IMG/VR virus record: IMGVR_UViG_2531839579_000019 | Length of the DNA: 10,845 bases | Strand: one strand, 5' to 3' | DNA from: a virus | Lineage: Duplodnaviria; Heunggongvirae; Uroviricota; Caudoviricetes | Part shown: piece by piece, positions 1 to 10,845 of the stretch | Numbering within the stretch: position 1 is the stretch's first letter | How the letters are laid out: each line of letters opens with the position of its first letter | Made by a program: the position numbers and the translations under genes | Notes under the pieces: generated by a model | Database searches by the model: none | What the model was told of the DNA's origin: nothing | Seen by the model: the letters and a program-made list of their open reading frames with translations, nothing else

Positions 1-1
1 A

Positions 2-208
2 TTTTTATTAGCATCAGAAATTTCAGACAACTATGACAATCTTCCTGAGAAAGTATCCAAGCTTGTTGAAAACTATAAAGGATTTAGATTTAACTCAGAA
101 GCAGAGACAATCAGAAATTTATTACGCTATATAGTCAACACACGGAAATTAAGTGATTTCTCACAAGCACTTTTGAAGATTGAAGAGATAATAAATAATT
201 ACAAATAA
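2..208 (+). CDS. 3' end of an unknown AT-rich cargo gene (5'-truncated by the window edge); C-terminal 68 aa ...LLKIEEIINNYK, stop TAA at 206-208
   Basis: Frame open from the window start to TAA 206-208. Base composition is strongly AT-rich (about 30% GC by my count), unlike the GC-rich P4-like core next to it. Ends 18 bp before the cos sequence. No recognisable motif in the visible tail. Confidence 0.5.
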   Translation, partial: FLLASEISDNYDNLPEKVSKLVENYKGFRFNSEAETIRNLLRYIVNTRKLSDFSQALLKIEEIINNYK

Positions 209-226
209 TTTCGTTCCTAGCGCGCA

Positions 227-245
227 GTGCTTTCCCCGCCTCGCC
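227..245. other. cos: cos site: 19-nt P2/P4-type cohesive-end sequence
   Basis: Sequence gtgctttccccgcctcgcc is the exact reverse complement of GGCGAGGCGGGGAAAGCAC, which I recall as the P2/186/P4 cohesive end. It lies just beyond the psu stop, as in P4. Confidence 0.7.
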
Positions 246-348
246 CGCCCGCTTTGCGGGGCGGTTTTAATGCAGTTGCACTGACACGCTCAGACCGCGC
301 CGGGAATGGCGCGGTTTGCAGAAAATGAGGCAGGGAAACGCATGCAAA

Positions 349-379
349 GCCATGCACCTTATCGATGCATGGCTTTTTT
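349..379. terminator. Rho-independent terminator hairpin between convergent genes
   Basis: Perfect 8-bp stem gccatgca (349-356) / tgcatggc (366-373) with a 9-nt loop, followed by TTTTTT (374-379) on the plus strand. On the minus strand it follows the psu stop but has only a short T tract. Confidence 0.6.
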
Positions 380-409
380 CAGTAAAAACGGGCGGATTTT
401 CGGGGAATT

Positions 410-982
410 TTACACTGACTGACGTGATGCCAGTTGCGCACTTTTACGCGAAAAAATCATGTTCTGCGCAGGGGTGAATTTTTCACGGCTGTCATCCACC
501 GAAGCCACGTCAGGCCTGAATCCGATGGTCGTTAAAATGTCGCTATCCTGTGCGGAATAATTAATTTTTTCACCCTTCGCAAGCCAGGACAGAAGGGCTT
601 CACGCAGGGCATCTGTGGCACGCTGTATGGCACAGTTTCGGGCAATGGCCGTCAGCTCACTGTAGCCCATCAGCTCCGGTGCCAGTGCCGCCGCCAGTGC
701 TGTGCCGTGCTGCTGCATAAAATCATTCAGCCGGTCGCGGATGCTGATGTGCTGAACGGCTTCATGCGAACGAATATAACGACCGGCGGCCTGATTCACC
801 TGCCATTTTCTGACTTCGATAATATTGCGTAATTCGTCCAGGCGACTGACGTTTCTGCCTTCTCCTGACAGAAGCCGCAGATATTCCTGTTCGGCCGCTG
901 CCAGCTCATTTTTGCGTTGCAGCCATGCTGCTTTGTTATTCTGACAGGTGTCAAAGGCCTGCTGTAAGGCTGTGCTTTCCAT
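410..982 (-). CDS. psu: Psu, polarity suppression protein (190 aa)
   Basis: Intact 190-aa ORF starting MESTALQQAFDTCQNNKAAW; the length and N-terminus match my recollection of P4 Psu. It is the last gene of a sid-delta-psu operon and ends next to cos. Confidence 0.85.
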   Translation of the reverse strand: MESTALQQAFDTCQNNKAAWLQRKNELAAAEQEYLRLLSGEGRNVSRLDELRNIIEVRKWQVNQAAGRYIRSHEAVQHISIRDRLNDFMQQHGTALAAALAPELMGYSELTAIARNCAIQRATDALREALLSWLAKGEKINYSAQDSDILTTIGFRPDVASVDDSREKFTPAQNMIFSRKSAQLASRQSV

Positions 983-1055
983 CGTTATCTCTTTCTCATC
1001 ATGCTGAAGAATAAAAATACGGTGTGCGGCGACGGCCGGTGTTAACCGGCAGCCC

Positions 1056-1556
1056 TCATTCCAGACGCAGCGAATATGATTGTGTTTTTAACCGTACTGG
1101 CGGCAGTTCCTGTTTTTCATGCAGGCGTTCTGCCAGTTCGTCCGGCGTGACCGGGCGGACAATGAAACGGTTGATGGTCTGAAGCGTTTTAAACACCAGA
1201 CCACAGCCCGGATCCGTGCACACATAAAAACGCTCGGTGACTTCCTGAGACAGACGCCGCGATGTTCTTGACAGTGCAAGGCCTTTACATCTCCGACAAC
1301 AATATCCGGTAACAAGCATTCTTTTCGGGCGTTTCATACTGCCGGAGGCTGACGTCAGTGAATCGCGGTATCTCTGTTTGCCTGAAATGTATTCCATTCC
1401 TGAATCTTTACTGTCAGAGAAAAAGCTTTCACTCGCTTCAAATGTCGCAGAGCAATAAATATTCCGGCACTGTGCAATCATTATCTTGGTGCCATCGTCC
1501 ATGAAATGTGCGCGACGGGTGTGAGCAACATGTCCACACGACGGGCAGTAAATCAT
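1056..1556 (-). CDS. delta: Delta, Ogr/Delta-family zinc-finger late-gene activator (166 aa)
   Basis: Intact 166-aa ORF with the Ogr-type motif C-P-x-C-x-H...QC-x-N-x-x-CSATF (MIYCPSCGHVAHTRR...AQCRNIYCSATF) and a second Cys-rich half (CCRRC...CTDPGCG), consistent with P4 Delta as a fused Ogr-like dimer. Its ATG overlaps the sid stop (ATGA). Confidence 0.85.
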   Translation of the reverse strand: MIYCPSCGHVAHTRRAHFMDDGTKIMIAQCRNIYCSATFEASESFFSDSKDSGMEYISGKQRYRDSLTSASGSMKRPKRMLVTGYCCRRCKGLALSRTSRRLSQEVTERFYVCTDPGCGLVFKTLQTINRFIVRPVTPDELAERLHEKQELPPVRLKTQSYSLRLE

Positions 1557-2278
1557 GACAGCAGTCCTCTGGCCTTAAGCTCTGCTCCCTGCTGGTCTAT
1601 TTTGTCCTGCCACACCTTGCGCTGTGCCGGTGTGCCTGCCACCTCATAATCCATGTGCGGGAGTGTTGCCGCTGACAGTCCGGTCAGCCGGAGAACCGGC
1701 TCGCCGGTGAGGCTGATTTGCATCTGTTTAATTTTCTGTTCCAGCGATGATTTCACCTGCTGCATGACAGCCTTTTCCGGTGCGACGTAGCCCTGATGGC
1801 CGGTGGTGTTGGCGAGCGGATTTTCCTGTACCAGAATGCTCAGATGCATTGCCCGGACAAGCGCCTCACAGGTTTCATTCAGGGCGTGTTCCAGCTCATG
1901 CTCTGCATACAGACTCAGAGGTGATGATGTGCCTTCCGGTAGGCGGTGGCCGTGCTGTCACACGCCCCTTTCAGGCGTTCCGTTCAAATTCAGCACCACG
2001 GCCAGATTGTCATATTCCTGTACCAGCTCCCGGCGTGCCACGCGCTCAATGTGGCGCTGTTTCAGCTCGTCGCTCAGGACACCACCGGCTGCACGAAAGG
2101 CGTGCGCCAGTCTCAGCGTCTTTCCGTCGGCCTGCGCCAGCGCATTTTTTTCCTGCTCTGCCCGTTCAATGGCCGTACGGTCTCATCCATCAGGCGGGCG
2201 TTCTCAAGATGGCGGCTCTGGCTTTTCCAGTTGTGCCAGTGCGGGTTGCAGATATTCAGGGATGGTGTTGTCAGACAT
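1553..2278 (-). pseudogene. sid: sid (capsid size determination) homolog, interrupted by frameshifts
   Basis: ATG at 2278 is preceded by AGGAG, but the frame stops after 24 codons (TGA at plus 2204-2206). Protein-like sequence continues in alternating frames, with at least four frame changes between about 1914 and 2224 and a second in-frame TGA. The C-terminal 98 aa (1553-1849) is in the starting frame. The 726-nt span is close to the 244-codon P4 sid. Confidence 0.7.
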
Positions 2279-2312
2279 TTTCCGGCTCCTCGTCACTTCA
2301 GGTTAAGAAAAT

Positions 2313-2368
2313 TGTGACGTACACCGGACAACAACACGACGCATTGCAGATGTGCCAGCCCTGACACA
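2313..2368 (-). promoter_or_regulatory. Psid-type late promoter region with two Delta/Ogr-type TGT-N12-ACA dyads
   Basis: Perfect TGT-N12-ACA at 2313-2330 and 2351-2368, centred 43 and 81 bp upstream of the sid ATG and 38 bp apart. This matches the P2/P4 late-promoter arrangement with activator sites near -55 and about -18. Confidence 0.6.
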
Positions 2369-2447
2369 GGAGACTCATCCTCAGACCGGCAAGCCAGGAA
2401 AAGGTCGCAGGAAAAACCGGCTTACTGTTTGTTTTTTTATATTTTAC

Positions 2448-2551
2448 TGTTCACCTCTGTTCACCTTAAGAAAAAAGATAAGTAATACAGTAAGTTAAAG
2501 GGTGAACAATCGCAGTAATGACTGTTCACCGTCTGTTCACCACTGTTCACC
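2448..2551. repeat. ori-like iteron cluster (TGTTCACC octamers)
   Basis: Five direct copies of TGTTCACC (2448, 2458, 2523, 2534, 2544) and one inverted copy (GGTGAACA at 2501), in the divergent region between sid and the rightward operon. The same octamer recurs in the crr-like repeats about 4.8 kb away. Confidence 0.7.
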
Positions 2552-2710
2552 CGTTGATGGGCTTTTTGTGCTGTTTACTACTGTTTGTTTTTATTAATTC
2601 GCCTGAATGAATAAGAAGAAACGATTTGTATTTCACTATAAAAATTACGAATTGCTTTAAGTGGCTTTAAATGACTATATGGTGGAGATGAACAAAAAAC
2701 ACACAGCCAT

Positions 2711-2728
2711 TGTAAGGCTGCCGGAACA
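2711..2728 (+). promoter_or_regulatory. Candidate Delta-binding dyad of a PLL-type late promoter upstream of vis
   Basis: TGT-aaggctgccgga-ACA (TGT-N12-ACA) about 110 bp upstream of the vis ATG. A second, imperfect CTG-N12-ACA lies about 35 bp downstream. Single perfect dyad only, so weak. Confidence 0.35.
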
Positions 2729-2830
2729 AATCCCCCCTGTTGCGTCTGCTGAAAATATTCACAAAATAAAGCGCTACCCGAAGCCGGACGGACTTATCCG
2801 GTGCTGTATGGACATTAACGAGGTAGCCCG

Positions 2831-3097
2831 ATGCAAGCTGTTTTTTCTTCCCCGTCTCCCGCCCCTGTGACGCCACTGATGCCGCTGCCGGACATCACGC
2901 AGGAGCGTTTTTTACGTCTGCCGGAAGTGATGCACCTGTGCGGCCTGTCACGCTCGACCATCTACGAACTCATCCGTAAGGGGGAATTTCCGCCGCAGGT
3001 GAGTCTTGGCGGTAAAAATGTGGCCTGGCTGCACTCTGAAGTCACCGCATGGATGGCCGGACGCATTGCCGGACGCAAACGGGGGTACGACGCATGA
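2831..3097 (+). CDS. vis: Vis/orf88, AlpA-family helix-turn-helix regulator (88 aa)
   Basis: Intact 88-aa ORF with GAGG 6 nt upstream. Contains the AlpA-type HTH signature RLPEV...[14 protein letters not shown]. It is the first gene of the rightward operon, as for P4 orf88. Confidence 0.75.
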
Positions 3098-3132
3098 TGA
3101 TGCCCGCTCTGCAAAAACTCCCTTTTTCTGGC

Positions 3133-3162
3133 TTGCCTTTTTCCGGCATTTGCGGATATAGT
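3133..3162 (+). promoter_or_regulatory. Candidate sigma70 promoter (PLE-like) at the head of the immunity/early leader
   Basis: TTGCCT (3133-3138), 18-bp spacer, TATAGT (3157-3162), immediately downstream of vis where P4 places PLE. Hexamer match only. Confidence 0.4.
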
Positions 3163-3225
3163 TTTTCCGCTGCCGCAAAATCGGCAGCCGGGCGTAGGAA
3201 CCCGTGTAACTCGTCGGCGACATAT

Positions 3226-3247
3226 GACGCGCCATGCGTCTTTTTTT
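3226..3247 (+). terminator. Short hairpin plus T7 tract in the early leader (attenuator/timm-like terminator)
   Basis: Stem gacgc (3226-3230) / gcgtc (3236-3240), 5-nt loop, then TTTTTTT (3241-3247). Sits about 75 nt downstream of the predicted PLE start, where a termination-based immunity mechanism would act. Confidence 0.45.
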
Positions 3248-3675
3248 GTGTCGCAATCAACGCCACAGAGCACCAGATTATGGTGTGGCGTGTGGTTTGC
3301 CGTGCAGGTATGATCCTGTTCGCAATCGCATGTTATGCCACTGAGTCAATGGTAGCTCAGGCGGGGCAGCCTCCGGGCTGGCCGGTTTCCGATAACGCCG
3401 GTATTCTCACCCCCGTCTGGGCTATCGCCATCGAGCGTGAGAACTCCGGCGATAGCGTCATTTACGCTGTTATCGGAGACTGCCTTATGGCTACGACCCT
3501 TACCCCCTCACACCCTGAATTTGTCTTTGTGTTTGCGGCTGTCCGTCGCGCAGACCGTCATCCCCGTATCTGATGCTTCGCACCGTCGCCGGTGATGAAC
3601 GCAGCGCCCGCCGTTCCCTTGTCCGTGACTATGTGCTCTCCCTTGCTGCCCGTCTGCCGGTGGTGGAGGTGTCCC

Positions 3676-3963
3676 GTGCGTAATAAAAAAGCCCCTCAGA
3701 CCGTCTCAGCACGTCATGACGCCCGTGAACACCTCAGCATTGAGGCTTACCATAAGCTCAACCGCGCCAGCGCCGTATCCCAGTTTGTTGGGGGTGATTT
3801 GATTCACCGTGAACTCTCCGGCCTGCATCAGCTCTACATTCCGCATATTTTCAGCTACCTGAATGAAGATATTGATTTTGTGCTGAATGAGCTGAAAGCC
3901 AAAGGCCTGTGCCGCGATTTTCTCGCCCAGCAGAAAGACCGGGGAGACAGGACGCATGTTTGA
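3676..3963 (+). CDS. Epsilon-like small protein (95 aa from GTG 3676; frame is open from 3592)
   Basis: GTG at 3676 is preceded by GGAGG (3665-3669) and gives 95 aa. The stop overlaps the orf151 start. Start choice is uncertain; the alternative at 3592 has no Shine-Dalgarno sequence. Confidence 0.55.
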
Positions 3964-4411
3964 TTTTCCCCAGCCCGGTGAGATTTACCGTTCTGCCGGT
4001 TTTCCCGATGTGGCCGTGGTCGGCATTCTGGAAGACGGTATTCCGTGGGAAATGCCGTACCGCTGCCCGGACATTGTCTGGAACCCGTACCGCCGTAAAT
4101 TCAGTATCCTTGTGCGTATCCTCGCTGACGGGCGCACCACAGACATCCCGCTGGGGCGTTTTCTGCGGGAATTTACCTGTGACCGTCCTGACCTGTTTAA
4201 ACGCAGCCCCGTAAACCGGCATGCGGTACTGAAAGAAATGGCCGGAGACCCGGAATTACAGAAATGGCGGGAGAAATATCTGGATATTTACCCGCAGGAC
4301 ACTGTTCCGGTCAGCCGGGCAGCACCGGTGGCGCGGGAATGGCGGGAAATTCCCCGCACGGAGCCTGACCCGGAAACCACCCCGGATAACAGTTACCGCA
4401 ATTATCTGTAA
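3956..4411 (+). CDS. orf151-like protein (151 aa)
   Basis: Intact 151-aa ORF with GGAG upstream, overlapping the epsilon stop. Size and position match P4 orf151 between epsilon and alpha. Confidence 0.75.
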   Translation: MFDFPQPGEIYRSAGFPDVAVVGILEDGIPWEMPYRCPDIVWNPYRRKFSILVRILADGRTTDIPLGRFLREFTCDRPDLFKRSPVNRHAVLKEMAGDPELQKWREKYLDIYPQDTVPVSRAAPVAREWREIPRTEPDPETTPDNSYRNYL

Positions 4412-4546
4412 TTAAAAAACGACACCCGAAAAATTAAATGTGCGTATTCGCGCAGGGATACGCACGTCTTCAGGAGACGCAGATATGCCTTATCAGTTAA
4501 TGCAACCGGCACGGAATGCAGTCATCTGTCACAGGGAGGAAAGCAA

Positions 4547-4866
4547 ATGAAAACACCCTTACCGCCCGTCTTACGCGCTGCCCTTTACCGTCGCGCTGTC
4601 GCCTGTGCCTGGCTGACCGTGTGCGAACGTCAGCACCGCTACCCGCATCTCACCCTTGATCACTGGAGGCGGCCATCGCCGCTGAGCTGGAAGGCTTTTA
4701 TCTGCGCCAGCACGGTGAGGAAAAAGGGCGTCAGATAGCCTGTGCCCTGCTGGAAGATTTAATGGAATCCGGCCCCCTGAAGGCCGCGCCGTCGCTGTCC
4801 TTTCTCGGGCTGGTTGTGATGGATGAACTCTGTGCCCGTCACATAAAAGCGCCGGTACTGCACTGA
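4547..4866 (+). pseudogene. orf106-like small ORF upstream of alpha, with one apparent 1-nt frameshift
   Basis: ATG 4547 is preceded by GGGAGGA. The frame reads 63 aa, then protein-like sequence continues in another frame from about 4663 ([33 protein letters not shown]...) to TGA 4864-4866. Restoring one base near 4655-4665 would give a continuous 106-codon ORF. Confidence 0.5.
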
Positions 4867-4880
4867 AGGAGAACAACACC

Positions 4881-7210
4881 ATGAAAATGAACGTAACCGC
4901 CACCGTCAGCCATGCGCTCGGCCACTGGCCGCGTATTCTCCCGGCGCTGGGGATTCAGGTGCTGAAAAACCGTCATCAGCCCTGTCCGGTCTGTGGCGGG
5001 AGTGACCGCTTCCGTTTTGATGACAGGGAGGGGCGCGGCACCTGGTACTGCAATCAGTGTGGTGCCGGTGACGGCCTGAAACTGGTTGAAAAGGTGTTTG
5101 GTGTTTCCCCGTCCGACGCGGCCACAAAGGTGGCTGCCGTGACCGGCAGCCTGCCCCCGACTGACCCGGCAGTGACGGCTGCCGCCGGTGCTGAAACAGA
5201 CGCTGCCCGGAAGAACGCCGCCGCACTGGCACAAACCCTGATGGCGAAAACCCGTCCCGGAACCGGTAACGCCTACCTGACCCGCAAGGGCTTTCCCGGC
5301 CGGGAATGCCGGATGCTGACCGGCACACACAGAGCCGGTGGCGTGAGCTGGCGCCCGGTGACCTTGTGGTGCCACTGTATGACGACAGCGGCGAACTGGT
5401 TAACCTTCAGTTAATCAGTGCTGACGGCCGTAAGCGCACCCTGAAAGGCGGACAGGTCAGGGGCACCTGTCACACCCTTGAAGGACAGAATCAGGCCGGA
5501 AAACGTCTGTGGATAGCGGAGGGATACGCGACCGCACTTACCGTCATCACCTGACCGGTGAAACGGTGATGGTGGCGCTTTCTTCCGTGAACCTCCTTTC
5601 TCTGGCCAGCCTTGCCCGGCAGAAGCATCCGGCCTGTCAGATTGTCCTTGCCGCAGACCGTGACCTCAGCGGTGACGGCCAGAAAAAAGCCGCCGCAGCC
5701 GCAGATGCGTGTGAGGGCGTTGTTGCCCTGCCGCCGGTCTTCGGTGACTGGAATGATGCCTTCACGCAGTACGGCGGGGAGGCCACCCGTAAGGCCATTT
5801 ACGATGCCATCCGGCCACCGGCTGAAAGCCCGTTCGACACCATGAGCGAAGCAGAGTTTTCCGCCATGAGTACCAGCGAAAAGGCCATGCGTATCTATGA
5901 GCATTACGGCGAGGCGCTCGCGGTCGATGCCAACGGCCAGCTTCTGTCCCGTTATGAAAATGGTGTCTGGAAGGTGCTGCCGCCACAGGACTTTGCCCGG
6001 GATGTGGCCGGGCTGTTTCAGCGTCTGCGCGCGCCGTTCTCCTCCGGGAAGGTGGCCTCCGTGGTGGACACCCTGAAGCTGATTATTCCGCAGCAGGAAG
6101 CCCCCTCCCGCCGCCTGATTGGCTTTCGTAACGGCGTGCTCGACACGCAGAACGGCACGTTCCACCCGCACAGTCCGTCACACTGGATGCGCACCCTGTG
6201 CGATGTGGATTTCACCCCGCCGGTGGACGGTGAAACGCTGGAACCCACGCCCCCGCGTTCTGGGCTGGCTTGACCGTGCCGCCGGTGGCCGTGCGGAAAA
6301 ACGCGACGTGATTCTGGCCGCACTGTTTATGGTGCTGGCAAACCGCTACGACTGGCAGCTCTTTCTGGAGGTGACCGGTCCCGGCGGCAGCGGCAAAAGT
6401 ATCATGGCCGAAATAGCCACCCTGCTGGCCGGGGAGGATAACGCCACGTCGGCCACCATTGAGACGCTGGAATCCCCGCGTGAACGTGCCGCGTTAACTG
6501 GCTTCTCACTGATACGCCTGCCGGACCAGGAAAAATGGAGCGGCGACGGTGCCGGACTCAAGGCCATCACCGGCGGCGATGCGGTGTCCGTGGACCCGAA
6601 ATACCGGGATGCGTACTCCACGCATATCCCGGCGGTGATTCTGGCCGTGAACAATAACCCGATGCGCTTCACCGACCGCAGCGGCGGCGTGTCACGCCGG
6701 CGGGTGATTATTCACTTCCCGGAACAGATAGCCCCGCAGGAGCGCGACCCGCAGCTTAAGGACAAAATCACCCGCGAGCTGGCGGTCATCGTGCGTCACC
6801 TGATGCAGAAGTTCAGCGACCCGATGCTCGCCCGGTCACTGCTTCAGTCCCAGCAGAACTCAGACGAGGCGCTGAACATCAAACGGGATGCCGACCCGAC
6901 GTTTGATTTTATCGGCTATCTGGAAACCCTGCCGCAGACCAGCGGCATGTATATGGGGAACGCCAGTATCATCCCGCGTAATTACCGTAAATACCTCTAT
7001 CACGCCTATCTGGCCTACATGGAGGCAAACGGCTACCGGAATGTACTCAGTCTGAAAATGTTCGGGCTGGGGCTGCCGGTGATGCTGAAGGAATACGGAC
7101 TGAATTACGAGAAGCGCCATACCAAACAGGGGATACAGACCAACCTGACGCTGAAAGAGGAAAGCTACGGCGACTGGCTGCCAAAATGTGACGACCCTGC
7201 AACAGCCTGA
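4881..7210 (+). pseudogene. alpha: Alpha-type primase/helicase, split into four frame segments by three frameshifts
   Basis: AAGGAGA 8 nt upstream of ATG 4881. Zinc-binding primase N-terminus (CPVCGG...RF...WYCNQCG), a Toprim-like segment (5306-5554), and a helicase part with Walker A GPGGSGKS (6119-7210). Frame changes fall within 5306-5414, 5509-5554 and 6119-6273. Total span 2330 nt, close to the 777-codon P4 alpha. Confidence 0.8.
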
Positions 7211-7226
7211 CCCTCATAACTCATCT

Positions 7227-7251
7227 GACCGGCATCTGCCGGTCTTTTTTT
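7227..7251 (+). terminator. Rho-independent terminator after alpha
   Basis: Stem gaccggc (7227-7233) / gccggtc (7238-7244), loop atct, then TTTTTTT (7245-7251), 17 nt after the alpha stop. Confidence 0.75.
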
Positions 7252-7267
7252 ATCCCTGAATCCCCCG

Positions 7268-7566
7268 AAGGTGAACAATCCACTGTTCACCCTTCACCGT
7301 ATATTCACCCGTTATCACACTGAAATTAAAAGAGAAAAACGAAAGGTGAACAGTGTGAACAATCAAATCAAAAAAAACTTTTTTCTTCCTGAGTGATTTC
7401 AGTGCGGAGGATTAATCACCGGTATGAGTCACACCGGCAGAATGCCGGAGGTGAAGAATCGAATGTTCACCCTTCACCCATTATTCACCACCTATCACTC
7501 TGAAATAAAAGGAGAAAACAGAAAGGTGAACAGTGTGAACAGTTCTTTCGAAAAAAAATTTTTTAT
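7268..7566. repeat. crr-like cis replication region: two ~117-bp direct repeats carrying the iterons
   Basis: Unit 1 (about 7268-7384) and unit 2 (about 7448-7566) are imperfect direct repeats with a 180-bp period. Each carries several TGTTCACC/GGTGAACA motifs and ends in an A-run/T-run. Matches the two-repeat crr downstream of alpha in P4. Confidence 0.7.
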
Positions 7567-7757
7567 GTGGATAAAAGATGCACTGGTTTGGATCCGAGCT
7601 ACGGATCCAAACTTACTGATTAAAAATGATTTAACTTTCCGATTTATTGATGGGCTGAAAATAGATTGGTCAGAAAAACAGTGGGGGCACAAAAGGGGGC
7701 ATATTTCATTGTTGTGTTTTATTATTTGTTTTTTATCATTAACTTATTTTGATGTTT

Positions 7758-7776
7758 GAGTCCGGCCTTCGCACCA
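7758..7776 (+). other. attP: att core resembling the 3' end of tRNA-Leu (leuX), with no tRNA body upstream
   Basis: gagtccggccttcgcacca matches the leuX 3' end GAGTCCGGCCTTCGGCACCA as I recall it, except for one missing G. The sequence upstream (7700-7757) is AT-rich and not tRNA-like. Lies 190 bp upstream of int. Confidence 0.55.
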
Positions 7777-7792
7777 TATAAAGTTTTTTTCA

Positions 7793-7876
7793 AGTCTACT
7801 CACGTCTACTTTAGTCCATAAAAACAGTAAATTAAGCAGGTTTTTTGCTTTTCTTAGTCTGTCCACGTCTACTTAC
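7793..7876. promoter_or_regulatory. Direct repeats between att core and int (candidate integrase arm-type sites / int promoter region)
   Basis: agtctactcacgtctacttt (7793-7812) and agtctgtccacgtctactta (7857-7876) match at 17 of 20 positions, 64 bp apart. Function is inferred from position only. Confidence 0.35.
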
Positions 7877-7965
7877 TTCTATCCACATATACCAACGAAT
7901 GATGGTATAACTGGTGGTATCTTCGGTTCGATTGATTTTGATACCAACAGCGGAGGTATCAACTG

Positions 7966-9216
7966 ATGGCACTTACTGATATCAAAGTTAGGACTACCAA
8001 GCCCTCCGACAAACCTTTCAAACTTACAGATGGGCAGGGTATGCACCTGCTGATCAACCCCAATGGTTCAAAATACTGGCGACTCCAATACCGTTTCGAT
8101 GGCAAACAGAAAGTTTTAGCATTGGGAGTTTATCCAATAGTCTCTCTTGGTGAAGCTCGCAGGAAACGAGATGAGGCCAAAAAGTTGGTATCTGATGGTA
8201 TCGATCCTTCCGAGAAGAAAAAAGCAGACAAGATCGAGCAGAGCGAAGCTCTGACATTCGAGGCTGTCGCAAGGGACTGGCATACTGCCTGTAAAAGGAA
8301 ATGGTCTGATTCCCACAGCGAGAGAGTTCTAAAAAGCATGGAAGATGGTCTCTTTACTGCTATTGGTAAAAGAAAAATATCCGAACTTAATACCAGAGAT
8401 CTTCTTGCCCCTATCAAGGCTGTTGAAGCTTCCGGGCGATTGGAAGTTGCTTCCCGATTACAGCAAAGAACAACGGCGGTAATGAGATATGCTGTCCAGA
8501 ACGGGCTGATAGATTACAACCCTGCTCAGGAGATGGCAGGAGCTATTGCGGTAGCTAAAAGAGTCCACAGGCCAGCTTTGCCATTCGAACGATTCTCAGA
8601 ACTTTTAGAACGAATTGATAGTTTCAAGGGTAGAAAACTCACGAAGTTAGCCGTGAAACTCACATTGCTCATTTTCATTCGTTCAAGTGAACTTAGGTTT
8701 GCTCGTTGGTCAGAGATAGATTTCGACAATGCCATGTGGACTATCCCTGGGGAACGTGAGCCATTGCCAGGGGTCAAACATTCTCATCGAGGCTCAAAAA
8801 TGAAGACCCCACACCTCGTGCCGTTAAGTCGCCAGGCTATAGAACTCCTCAAAGCTATCAAAGAAATCAGCGGTGAATGTGAACTTGTGTTCATTGGTGA
8901 TCATGATTTTAGAAAGCCTATGAGTGAAAACACGGTAAACAAGGCTTTAAGGTCTATGGGCTACGACACTACGGTTGAAGTATGTGGACATGGTTTTCGT
9001 GCGATGGCATGTAGTGCGTTGATCGAATCGGGAAAATGGTCAAGGGATGCTGTTGAACGGCAGATGAGCCACCAAGAGCGAAACTCCGTTCGTGCTGCCT
9101 ACATTCATAAAGCAGAACACCTTGATGAAAGAAGGCTTATGTTGCAGTGGTGGGCTGATTACCTTAATGCCTTGAAAGATAGGTTTATCAGTCCCTTTGA
9201 TTTTACAACAAAGTAG
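7966..9216 (+). CDS. int: P4-type tyrosine integrase (416 aa)
   Basis: GGAGG 9 nt upstream of ATG 7966. P4-family N-terminus (MALTDIKVRTTKP...YWRLQYRF...), catalytic-region H-x-x-R (HGFRAMA) and a tyrosine in RAAYIHKAEHLDERR. Intact. GC is visibly lower than the psu-alpha core. Confidence 0.9.
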   Translation: MALTDIKVRTTKPSDKPFKLTDGQGMHLLINPNGSKYWRLQYRFDGKQKVLALGVYPIVSLGEARRKRDEAKKLVSDGIDPSEKKKADKIEQSEALTFEAVARDWHTACKRKWSDSHSERVLKSMEDGLFTAIGKRKISELNTRDLLAPIKAVEASGRLEVASRLQQRTTAVMRYAVQNGLIDYNPAQEMAGAIAVAKRVHRPALPFERFSELLERIDSFKGRKLTKLAVKLTLLIFIRSSELRFARWSEIDFDNAMWTIPGEREPLPGVKHSHRGSKMKTPHLVPLSRQAIELLKAIKEISGECELVFIGDHDFRKPMSENTVNKALRSMGYDTTVEVCGHGFRAMACSALIESGKWSRDAVERQMSHQERNSVRAAYIHKAEHLDERRLMLQWWADYLNALKDRFISPFDFTTK

Positions 9217-9303
9217 CTTGATCAACGATTAACTATCCACTGGCATAGCCGTGTGATATGATTACAATGGCTATATTTTTAATTTAAATTTAATAGGTAA
9301 AAA

Positions 9304-10443
9304 ATGTCCACAATTAACCCCGCAATTTTTTCTTTTTTCTCTGGTTCAGGATTTCTTGATCTTGGATTTGAAAAAAATGGTTATGAAGTGGTTTTCGTGA
9401 ATGAATACCATGCTCCGTTTATGGATGCATATAAACATTCGAGGAAAAAATTAAATATAGCACCACCTCGTTTTGGGTATGCAGAGTGCAGTATTGAAGA
9501 TGTAGAACATGAAAAAATTAAGTCTTCTATGCTTCAACTTAAAAATGAGGGGCGATTGACTGGATTTATTGGTGGTCCACCATGCCCGGATTTCTCTGTA
9601 GCGGGTAAAAATAAAGGTCGAGATGGTGAAAACGGTCGGCTTTCACAAAGCTATATTGATATCATTCTTGAAATGAAACCAGATTTCTTTCTTTTTGAGA
9701 ATGTTAAAGGTCTATACCGTACCAGTAAACATAGGGAATTTTTTGACCATTTAAAAACTCAATTAGAATCGGTTGGTTATTGTTTGCATGAAAAACTAAT
9801 AAATTCTATTGAATATGGTGCTCCTCAAGATAGGCAACGAATCATATTGATTGGTTTCCTTGATGAAAAATATGCAAGCCAATTCAATTGGGGGCAAAGA
9901 GTCTACCCTGAAAGAACTGCATTTGAATATAAATGGCCGACGACAAACCAATTTTCAGAAAACACTTCTGTTATAAAACCAAAGGGTATCCCAGAAGAGT
10001 TAACAGTAGAGCATTGGTTCAAGAAAAACCAGGTTGATAATCATCCAAATGCAAAGCATGTATTCGCGGCAAGAGCAGGGCTTGCGAGGTTTTTGACTGT
10101 CGAAGAAGGGGATGATAGTAAAAAATCCTATAAAAGGTTGCATAGATGGAGATTTTCACCAACTGCTGCTTACGGTAATAATGAGGTACATTTACATCCT
10201 TATAAACCAAGAAGAATTACTGTTGCCGAAGCATTAGCAATTCAGTCTTTACCAAAAGAATTTGAATTACCTGCTTATATGACTCTGTCTAATATGTTTA
10301 AAACTGTCGGTAACGGTGTACCCTACTTAGCAGCGGCCGGTATTGCCAAATCTATTATAGAGCATTTAGGAATCGAATATGAGAGTAACTGCGGCGAACT
10401 TAGCACAGGCGATTGCCAATCTACCAAGAAACACGCAGTTTAA
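9304..10443 (+). CDS. DNA (cytosine-5)-methyltransferase (379 aa), intact
   Basis: Ordered C5-methyltransferase motifs: motif I-like FSGSGF, motif IV GGPPCPDFSVAG, motif VI FENVKGL, motif VIII QDRQR, motif X TVGNGVP. AT-rich; first gene after int. Confidence 0.85.
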   Translation: MSTINPAIFSFFSGSGFLDLGFEKNGYEVVFVNEYHAPFMDAYKHSRKKLNIAPPRFGYAECSIEDVEHEKIKSSMLQLKNEGRLTGFIGGPPCPDFSVAGKNKGRDGENGRLSQSYIDIILEMKPDFFLFENVKGLYRTSKHREFFDHLKTQLESVGYCLHEKLINSIEYGAPQDRQRIILIGFLDEKYASQFNWGQRVYPERTAFEYKWPTTNQFSENTSVIKPKGIPEELTVEHWFKKNQVDNHPNAKHVFAARAGLARFLTVEEGDDSKKSYKRLHRWRFSPTAAYGNNEVHLHPYKPRRITVAEALAIQSLPKEFELPAYMTLSNMFKTVGNGVPYLAAAGIAKSIIEHLGIEYESNCGELSTGDCQSTKKHAV

Positions 10444-10453
10444 TTATTTAAAT

Positions 10454-10845
10454 GTGCGAAATTCGGGAAGAATCATTGTAACGAATGTTCAACTTCCCGA
10501 AGGCCCAATAGAATTCAAAAGATTCGATCCAAAAAAGGGTGAGACACTGCATAGTTCTAAATCGGAAAGCATCTCCACACAAATGATGTGGAGATTGGCT
10601 AATGCTTTACAGGAAGATGTCCCTGTCAATTTGGATCGTATTTTTGGTGCAAGCTATAATACACGTGCTGTTCTCGAAAGCCTTTTGGCCCATACTCCTG
10701 AGTTTTATTGGTGTAAGCTTGATCGCCTTGAGGTAATGAACACTCAGAAAAATATTAAAAAAGGTCACAAGCACCTTATTTATAGACCAAATGACCCACA
10801 TGAAAATGGTGTAGCAATAGAACATACTACTAATGTTATAATTTC
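10454..10845 (+). CDS. Unknown ORF immediately downstream of the methyltransferase (3'-truncated by the window edge); possible functional partner
   Basis: Frame open from 10442 to the window end, 130 codons visible. Candidate starts are GTG 10454 (10 nt after the methyltransferase stop) or ATG 10583; neither has a clear Shine-Dalgarno sequence. Same strand and composition as the methyltransferase. No diagnostic motif in the visible part. Confidence 0.45.
   Translation, partial: MRNSGRIIVTNVQLPEGPIEFKRFDPKKGETLHSSKSESISTQMMWRLANALQEDVPVNLDRIFGASYNTRAVLESLLAHTPEFYWCKLDRLEVMNTQKNIKKGHKHLIYRPNDPHENGVAIEHTTNVII

Follow-up and report, generated by a model that had tools for sequence, protein, structure and literature searches.

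When an integrase gene directly follows the replication region of a P4-like element, does it belong to that element in an unintegrated form, or to a neighbor? Integrated P4 prophages have the order attL-int-cargo-cos-psu...alpha-crr-attR. We analyzed a 10,845-bp stretch of DNA (here referred to as the window), which is the whole of draft contig AQBU01000082.1 (assembly GCA_000358575.2). In it, crr (7265 to 7564), an att core (7758 to 7776), and an integrase gene (int2; 7966 to 9216) are contiguous, and an intact cos in joined form (227 to 245) lies internally. An earlier sequence-only reading had described all of these features correctly. It took the order for that of a circular attP and named, as the alternative, the internal junction of a tandem array with the integrase and the AT-rich cargo assigned to a second element. 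It is the alternative that is seen in complete genomes. Positions 7565 to 7965 of the window are, with high confidence, a composite site in which the attR of a P4-like satellite runs into the attL of a separate island at the tRNA-Leu gene leuX.

Results

A P4-like backbone with an internal cos

Between positions 246 and 7777, the window is collinear with bacteriophage P4 (98.1%), from the right cos end to the attP core, and the homology ends within the core. The P4-like satellite set of psu, delta, sid, alpA/vis, epsilon, alpha, cos, and crr is present in P4 order. On the minus strand, psu (410 to 982; Pfam Psu), delta (1056 to 1556; Pfam Ogr_Delta), and sid (about 1553 to 2290) match P4 at 98%, with nine one-base deletions breaking the sid gene. 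The plus strand carries the P4 left operon (2831 to 7210), in which vis/alpA, the CI (C4) RNA region, epsilon, orf151, orf106, and alpha were assigned by collinearity with P4 and by Pfam families; Rfam matches to C4, isrK, and c4-a1b1 fall at 3156 to 3432. The gene for the alpha primase-helicase (4881 to 7210, plus strand) is split by one-base deletions into four open reading frames. Beyond it lies the cis replication region, crr, for which a repeat search returned two 120-nt direct repeats on the plus strand (7265 to 7384 and 7445 to 7564), collinear with the crr annotated in P4 record X51522 at 4291 to 4590. The G+C content drops from about 0.55 to 0.65 in the backbone to about 0.35 to 0.45 from crr on.

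At the opposite end of the window, positions 1 to 208 (plus strand) translate as the 3' end of a SIR2-family defense gene, consisting of 68 codons and the stop. The full gene (WP_001399512.1) is annotated as SIR2 family, with ThsA-type SIR2 matches by PADLOC, and is cargo of a P4-like element. A P4-like copy borne at selC in Escherichia coli strain 504237 equals window positions 1 to 220 at 100% identity. The cos cohesive-end sequence (227 to 245, minus strand) is the reverse complement of P4 bases 1 to 19 and directly abuts the reverse complement of the P4 right end, so that cos is both joined and internal; P2-type cos regions also match the window at 211 to 292. From this internal position the earlier reading had concluded that the element was circular, which was a mistake: integrated P4 prophages have an internal joined cos as well, and because every one of them does, the feature is uninformative on integration state.

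The core and its two arms

Immediately downstream of crr, positions 7565 to 7757 (plus strand) are identical to the left (P) arm of P4 attP, here in the place of the attR arm of the P4-like element. This arm contains two 12-nt repeats on the plus strand, GTGGGGGCACAA (7681 to 7692) and AAGGGGGCATAT (7693 to 7704), which equal the P4 repeats annotated as "attP arm sequence repeat" features at 4151 to 4174. Next comes the shared att core, a 19-nt fragment of the leuX 3' end with the sequence GAGTCCGGCCTTCGCACCA (7758 to 7776, plus strand), located by alignment and motif count. It is the sole match in the window, where 0.00 are expected (200 shuffles), and it points the same way as leuX does in the identical 504237 locus. 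Compared with the 20-nt P4 attP core and leuX 3' end, it lacks one G of CGGC, with 19 of the 20 positions present. ARAGORN predicted no tRNA gene anywhere in the window, and Rfam gave no tRNA match at an E value of ≤1. The sequence upstream of the core is P4's own attP arm and holds no tRNA sequence. The observation that the 3'-end core is present with no tRNA body therefore stands, and reanalysis with both programs brought up no complete tRNA gene overlapping 7758 to 7776.

Positions 7777 to 7965 (plus strand) form the attL (P') arm of the second element, as delimited by arm alignment and motif scan. In the junction alignment, the window was compared with P4 attP, a pair of leuX attL sites, and the corresponding E. 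coli 504237 locus. The int-side arm is not homologous to the int-side arm of P4; it aligns to the arm that separates a complete leuX from the int2 homolog in Salmonella houtenae and E. coli 120899. In the P4 record, attP is flanked on each side by 12-nt arm repeats whose core is GGGGGCA, whereas in the window these repeats occur on the crr side only (7683 and 7695) and the int side has none. Motif scans instead found TGGTAT repeats on the int side (7903 and 7915 on the plus strand and 7889 and 7941 on the minus strand), confined to that side and arranged with the same 12-nt tandem spacing as the GGGGGCA repeats, plus inverted copies. GTCTAC repeats lie in the same arm at 7794, 7804, and 7867. 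In strain 504237, the matching GGGGGCA-bearing arm is located beside int1, adjoining leuX; the matching TGGTAT-bearing arm is at the distal end of the int2 island, where it precedes a third copy of the core. Given that the two arms differ in repeat type and that each has its cognate partner elsewhere, the junction is not a coherent attP for either integrase.

int2 and the element that it heads

The int2 gene (7966 to 9216, plus strand) encodes an intact P4-family tyrosine integrase of 416 amino acids (Pfam PF13356, PF22022, and PF00589). At the protein level it is 59% identical to P4 Int and 90% identical to the leuX-adjacent integrase of S. houtenae; int1 of strain 504237, the integrase gene of the satellite itself, is 94% identical to P4 Int. 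The int2 protein has the same accession, WP_001399624.1, in strains 504237 and 120899. Downstream lies a type II restriction-modification (R-M) cargo, beginning with a C5 cytosine DNA methyltransferase gene (9304 to 10443, plus strand; Pfam PF00145; PADLOC MTase_II, 1e-163). It is followed by a type II restriction endonuclease gene (10379 to 10845, plus strand) that is cut by the contig end after the first 155 of 358 amino acids. This fragment is identical to the N terminus of WP_032190416.1, the full-length protein scoring 8.7e-124 as REase_II in PADLOC. In complete genomes, int2 heads an island of ~27 kb that contains no P4 genes and starts with the type II R-M pair. The int2 gene belongs to a second element, a leuX island.

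The same junction in complete genomes

Window positions 7565 to 10845 are 100% identical to the leuX array of strain 504237. The order there is ahr, leuX, int1, two cargo genes, cos, psu...alpha, crr, core, int2, methyltransferase, restriction endonuclease, and DUF6387. Beyond DUF6387, the island holds two further recombinases, relaxase fragments, IS elements, and Abi/DUF262/DUF3696 genes. The third core copy, detected by BLAST and a regular expression and containing a TTCGCACC triplication, lies ~27 kb downstream; a KpLE2-type remnant comes next, and then nanS and the fim genes. This genome accordingly has three core copies, at leuX, at the junction, and at the far end of the island. Inspection of the flanks for tRNA-Leu, which the sequence-only reading had proposed, gave a divided answer: a complete leuX with int1 heads the identical 504237 locus, and none is present in the window. 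The tandem structure is therefore demonstrated in a near-identical complete genome, the window itself being without the array head (leuX and int1).

Other strains show the leuX site with either element alone. In strain 120899, which serves as the control with an unoccupied site, leuX leads directly into the same int2 island; the protein accessions are identical, and a P4-like element is absent. Strain 13E0767 has a P4-like element without the int2 island, and its attR abuts the same downstream remnant; in APEC O18, too, a P4-like element is present and the int2 island absent. Strains NS-NP030 and B27 have arrays built in the same way: the satellite, again with its own integrase, stands before other islands (type III R-M, Dpd). 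A complete leuX heads the array in NS-NP030 and B27 as it does in 504237. Among the matches listed, annotated tRNA-Leu abuts 54 of 60 int2-type E. coli loci. In a sample drawn by pattern scans from IMG/VR and GTDB species representatives, a P4-family integrase gene followed ~200 nt after the P4-arm-linked core in 16 of 33 assessable loci, and this integrase was closer to int2 than to P4 Int in all but one of the 16 (the exception being locus L043). The exact junction was absent from IMG/VR in an exact-match scan.

Reliability of the contig backbone

The left cargo of the window (SIR2) differs from the cargo of the leuX copy in strain 504237, so the contig has to be either collapsed or chimeric, or else a natural recombinant. 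Two loci of strain 504237 are relevant here, the selC-borne P4-like element (int-SIR2-cos) and, about 725 kb away, the leuX array. Their P4-like copies differ at 180 sites; of these, the window agrees with the selC copy at 120 and with the leuX copy at 51, switching between them 43 times, and 41 further differences are private to the window backbone. Relative to the leuX copy there are 15 one-base gaps, every one of them a base missing from the window, in the shared backbone between 1918 and 6263. Nine of these gaps lie within about 300 bp of sid, and none falls in the 3.3-kb unique right flank. Exact-match scans for a window-specific stretch with two of the deletions returned nothing from IMG/VR, GTDB genomes, or JGI metagenomes.

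We consider it probable that several P4-like prophages of a strain resembling 504237 were collapsed into a single consensus to give this backbone. If so, the two unique ends, SIR2-cos and crr-core-int2, most likely come from different loci (selC and leuX, respectively), and on the same reading the frameshifts in sid and alpha are most likely artifacts. It is unlikely, by comparison, that the contig is a faithful copy of a natural recombinant with SIR2 cargo at leuX, in tandem with the island and with truly decayed sid and alpha. P4-like backbones are mosaic in nature, and that of the window does shift rightward from mostly selC-copy-like to mostly leuX-copy-like; however, as many as 43 switches at 180 distinguishing sites speak against a faithful copy, as do two unique ends that are each 100% identical to 504237 loci 725 kb apart. 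The combination of the SIR2 end with the leuX-type arm occurs in no complete E. coli genome, and the pattern of gaps is more readily explained by consensus error in a collapsed repeat than by natural decay. The tandem junction is identical whether the backbone is collapsed or faithful. An unreliable backbone leaves the junction unaffected, since the junction lies in the unique part of the contig and is reproduced in a complete genome.

The missing G of the core

The core with a single G also occurs at the equivalent junctions of strains 504237, NS-NP030, and B27. More broadly, a single-G core stands behind P4-type arms in 41 of 43 loci, which have at least 12 different right flanks and come from several genera, and every leuX copy examined has GG. 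Where the right arm is of the int2 type, the core has G behind a P4-like element and GG behind leuX or a non-P4 element. Because the G state varies with the left neighbor, it is linked to the element side, which would place strand exchange within GCACCA. A contrary observation is that a single G, together with the TTCGCACC triplication and one particular flank, is found behind three different left arms, those of the P4-like element, the int2 island, and a prophage of strain 582. The strain 582 prophage recombines about 43 nt into leuX. The attP of laboratory P4 has GG, and no other true attP was found for the G/GG comparison. Integration of PAI II536 is reported to restore leuX.

Two simple placements of strand exchange were tried and not adopted: one 5' of the G site leaves the arrays unexplained, and one 3' of that site fails to account for the strain 582 prophage. 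We tentatively raise, as the less favored view, that the missing G may be informative rather than a product of decay, with natural P4-like attP cores being one G short of leuX. If this were true, P4-type integrases would exchange strands 3' of the missing-G position, within GCACCA, contrary to the usual view that the tRNA 3' end is supplied by the element.

Discussion

We infer the order of insertion events and the present activity of the sites as follows. Two P4-family tyrosine integrases would use a common core, the 3' end of the tRNA-Leu gene leuX, and recognize different arm repeats. The island, which spans about 27 kb in strain 504237 and includes int2 and the type II R-M pair, may have taken leuX first, its int-side end regenerating the leuX tRNA gene. 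The P4-like element would then have entered the regenerated leuX by means of its own integrase, int1, a P4 Int ortholog. Entry of the satellite would have pushed a core copy and the island's int-side arm downstream, to a position directly behind crr. The predicted excision pair of the satellite consists of the leuX-int1 site and the left arm of the junction, and that of the island consists of the right arm of the junction and the third core copy with the far arm at the island end; each element could in principle excise alone. The layouts of strains 120899 and 13E0767 are those expected from independent loss or gain of each element. A core one G shorter than leuX counts against this scheme, and recombination at the junction is putative.

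How well would a circular or episomal form account for the same sequence? The P4-like element would be unintegrated, or would be a recombinant satellite using int2, crr-core-int2 would be a true attP, and the R-M genes and SIR2 would make up one cargo block between int2 and cos. The alpha-crr-core-int order is indeed the same as in P4 phage DNA, but the arm repeats on the two sides of the core belong to different integrases, and int2, with 59% identity to P4 Int against 94% for int1 of 504237, is not the satellite's own. In complete genomes int2 heads the ~27-kb island without P4 genes, and in all of 32 complete genomes the SIR2 gene directly follows a selC-type integrase gene of its own. The two contig ends have compatible reading frames. 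Closure of a circle through them was rejected, as such compatibility has a one-in-three chance of arising by coincidence and the fragments, the SIR2 C terminus and the restriction endonuclease N terminus, come from unrelated proteins with no terminal overlap. Closure would also need at least 3 kb more sequence (the SIR2 gene lacks about 2.5 kb and the restriction endonuclease gene 0.6 kb), for a circle of at least 14 kb versus 11.6 kb for P4. The assembly topology, another check that had been proposed, is that of a linear contig that ends in unrelated genes and does not overlap itself. Phage and nucleotide matches and a plasmid collection yielded no phage or plasmid record with the layout of the window. 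We therefore regard the circular attP order put forward by the sequence-only reading as very improbable.

That the junction (7565 to 7968) is an assembly artifact, or its core a chance match to a tRNA end, is more improbable still. The contig does come from a draft assembly with evident consensus problems, but the same junction is found base for base in the complete 504237 genome, and analogous junctions are found in several other complete genomes. An unrelated chance match, which the earlier reading had named as one way of being refuted, is at odds both with that recurrence and with the shuffled expectation of 0.00 for the core. The composite junction of two stacked elements is thus the reading that we retain.

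Compared with the P4 attP region (X05947/X51522), the window has the same crr, the same left arm with two 12-nt repeats, and the same core, at 99 to 100%, as well as the alpha-crr-core-int gene order. It differs in that its int-side arm is without GGGGGCA, its integrase is 59% identical, its core lacks one G, and its sequence is chromosomal and not phage DNA.

The arrangement is an ordinary one that has already been described. Tandem arrays at tRNA genes were defined in these terms by Islander (PMC4383910), and the array of strain 504237 resembles them in having an integrase and a tRNA-gene fragment for each member and a complete tRNA gene only at the head. Moura de Sousa and Rocha noted that an integrase is found, rarely, next to alpha and attributed it to neighboring mobile elements (PMC8628076); the alpha-adjacent integrase of the window is likewise explained by a neighbor, and nothing essential differs. 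Islands at leuX with P4-like integrases are also known, an example being PAI II of E. coli 536 (PMC3202238). As in such islands, int2 is of the P4 family and lies directly beside leuX when its island is the sole occupant, and the island contains mobilization remnants and defense genes. Unlike theirs, its cargo is a type II R-M pair, recombinases, Abi, and DUF262/DUF3696 rather than virulence genes. KpLE2/intB of K-12 is another leuX island with a P4-like integrase.

For the annotation of P4-like satellites, an integrase beside alpha-crr is no sign of an excised or plasmid form, and an internal cos is never one. Where a draft contig runs over a multicopy P4-like backbone, flanks from different loci can be joined, and artificial frameshifts can arise. 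Comparing the arm repeats across the core provides a quick test, from sequence only, that distinguishes a true attP from a composite attR/attL. At leuX-type hot spots, satellites stack before resident islands, with the same core and different arm sites.

Core sequence at the att site

The core of the window (7758-7776), a fragment of the leuX (tRNA-Leu) 3' end, has a single G, one fewer than leuX or the attP of laboratory P4. This single-G core lies behind P4-type arms in 41 of the 43 loci with such arms, and many different right flanks follow it; the cores concerned are at 20559 in L001, 16557 in L006, 16536 in L007 and ~3059 in L009 to L011, and in the set L014 to L064. GG was found in every leuX copy read, and the core next to an int2-type arm is also GG when it stands behind leuX or a non-P4 element (L068 and L069). 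This pattern may place the crossover at GCACCA, or the G may have been lost recurrently.

At 1382-2400 of L043 (IMGVR_UViG_2921842437_000005), a single-G core linked to a P4 arm precedes a different arm in which GGGGGCA repeats are absent. The integrase that comes next shares 88% identity with P4 Int, so this locus may represent either two P4 elements in tandem or a variant of the arm. A core variant of the form GAGTCCGGCC(TTCGCACC)x3A, which contains a triplication of TTCGCACC, occurs in L005 (~43618-43660, minus strand), L009 (3059-3093) and L067 (~2500-2560). The triplicated core and the same KpLE2-type flank stand behind three different elements: one is the int2 island, another is P4-like, and the third is a prophage recombining ~43 nt into leuX. 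An unoccupied leuX beside a related flank (L066) has GG without the triplication.

The P4-like backbone

The P4 immunity RNA system was identified by Rfam above gathering scores at 3156-3432. It comprises the C4 antisense RNA (3345-3432, 76 bits), the a1/b1 target of that RNA (3156-3208) and isrK (3169-3246). A 111-amino-acid ORF (7424-7759) starts at the second crr repeat, crosses the P4 arm and terminates at the core. It had no Pfam match and is labeled hypothetical in RefSeq (WP_001405510.1); a shorter version is named "integrase" in one genome.

Five places in E. coli strain 504237 match the window. Relative to this strain, 15 one-base gaps were found at 1918-6263, each a base absent from the window, with 9 of them within 1918-2221, in sid; together they fragment sid, orf106 and alpha. 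The AT-rich unique flank (7500-10845) showed no one-base gaps and no differences. The gaps are probably consensus errors in a multi-copy repeat that was collapsed in the draft assembly. Positions 221-7564 form a fine-scale mosaic of the strain's two P4-like copies (120 selC-like sites, 51 leuX-like sites and 43 switches). The mosaic also carries 41 private differences, and the overall pattern suggests that a third copy contributed to the backbone.

Cargo of the int2 island

A type II restriction-modification pair (9304-10845; 22105-24256 in L001) comes first among the genes carried by the island. It consists of a C5 methyltransferase and a 358-amino-acid endonuclease, with an overlap of 65 nt between their genes. 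The endonuclease gave a strong REase_II match in PADLOC and no match in Pfam. Further into the island in L001, two more tyrosine recombinase genes, adjacent and overlapping, are found at 26202-28746, followed by relaxase fragments broken up by IS100 and IS66-family elements. This recombinase pair and the interrupted relaxase fragments suggest a decayed integrative mobilizable element.
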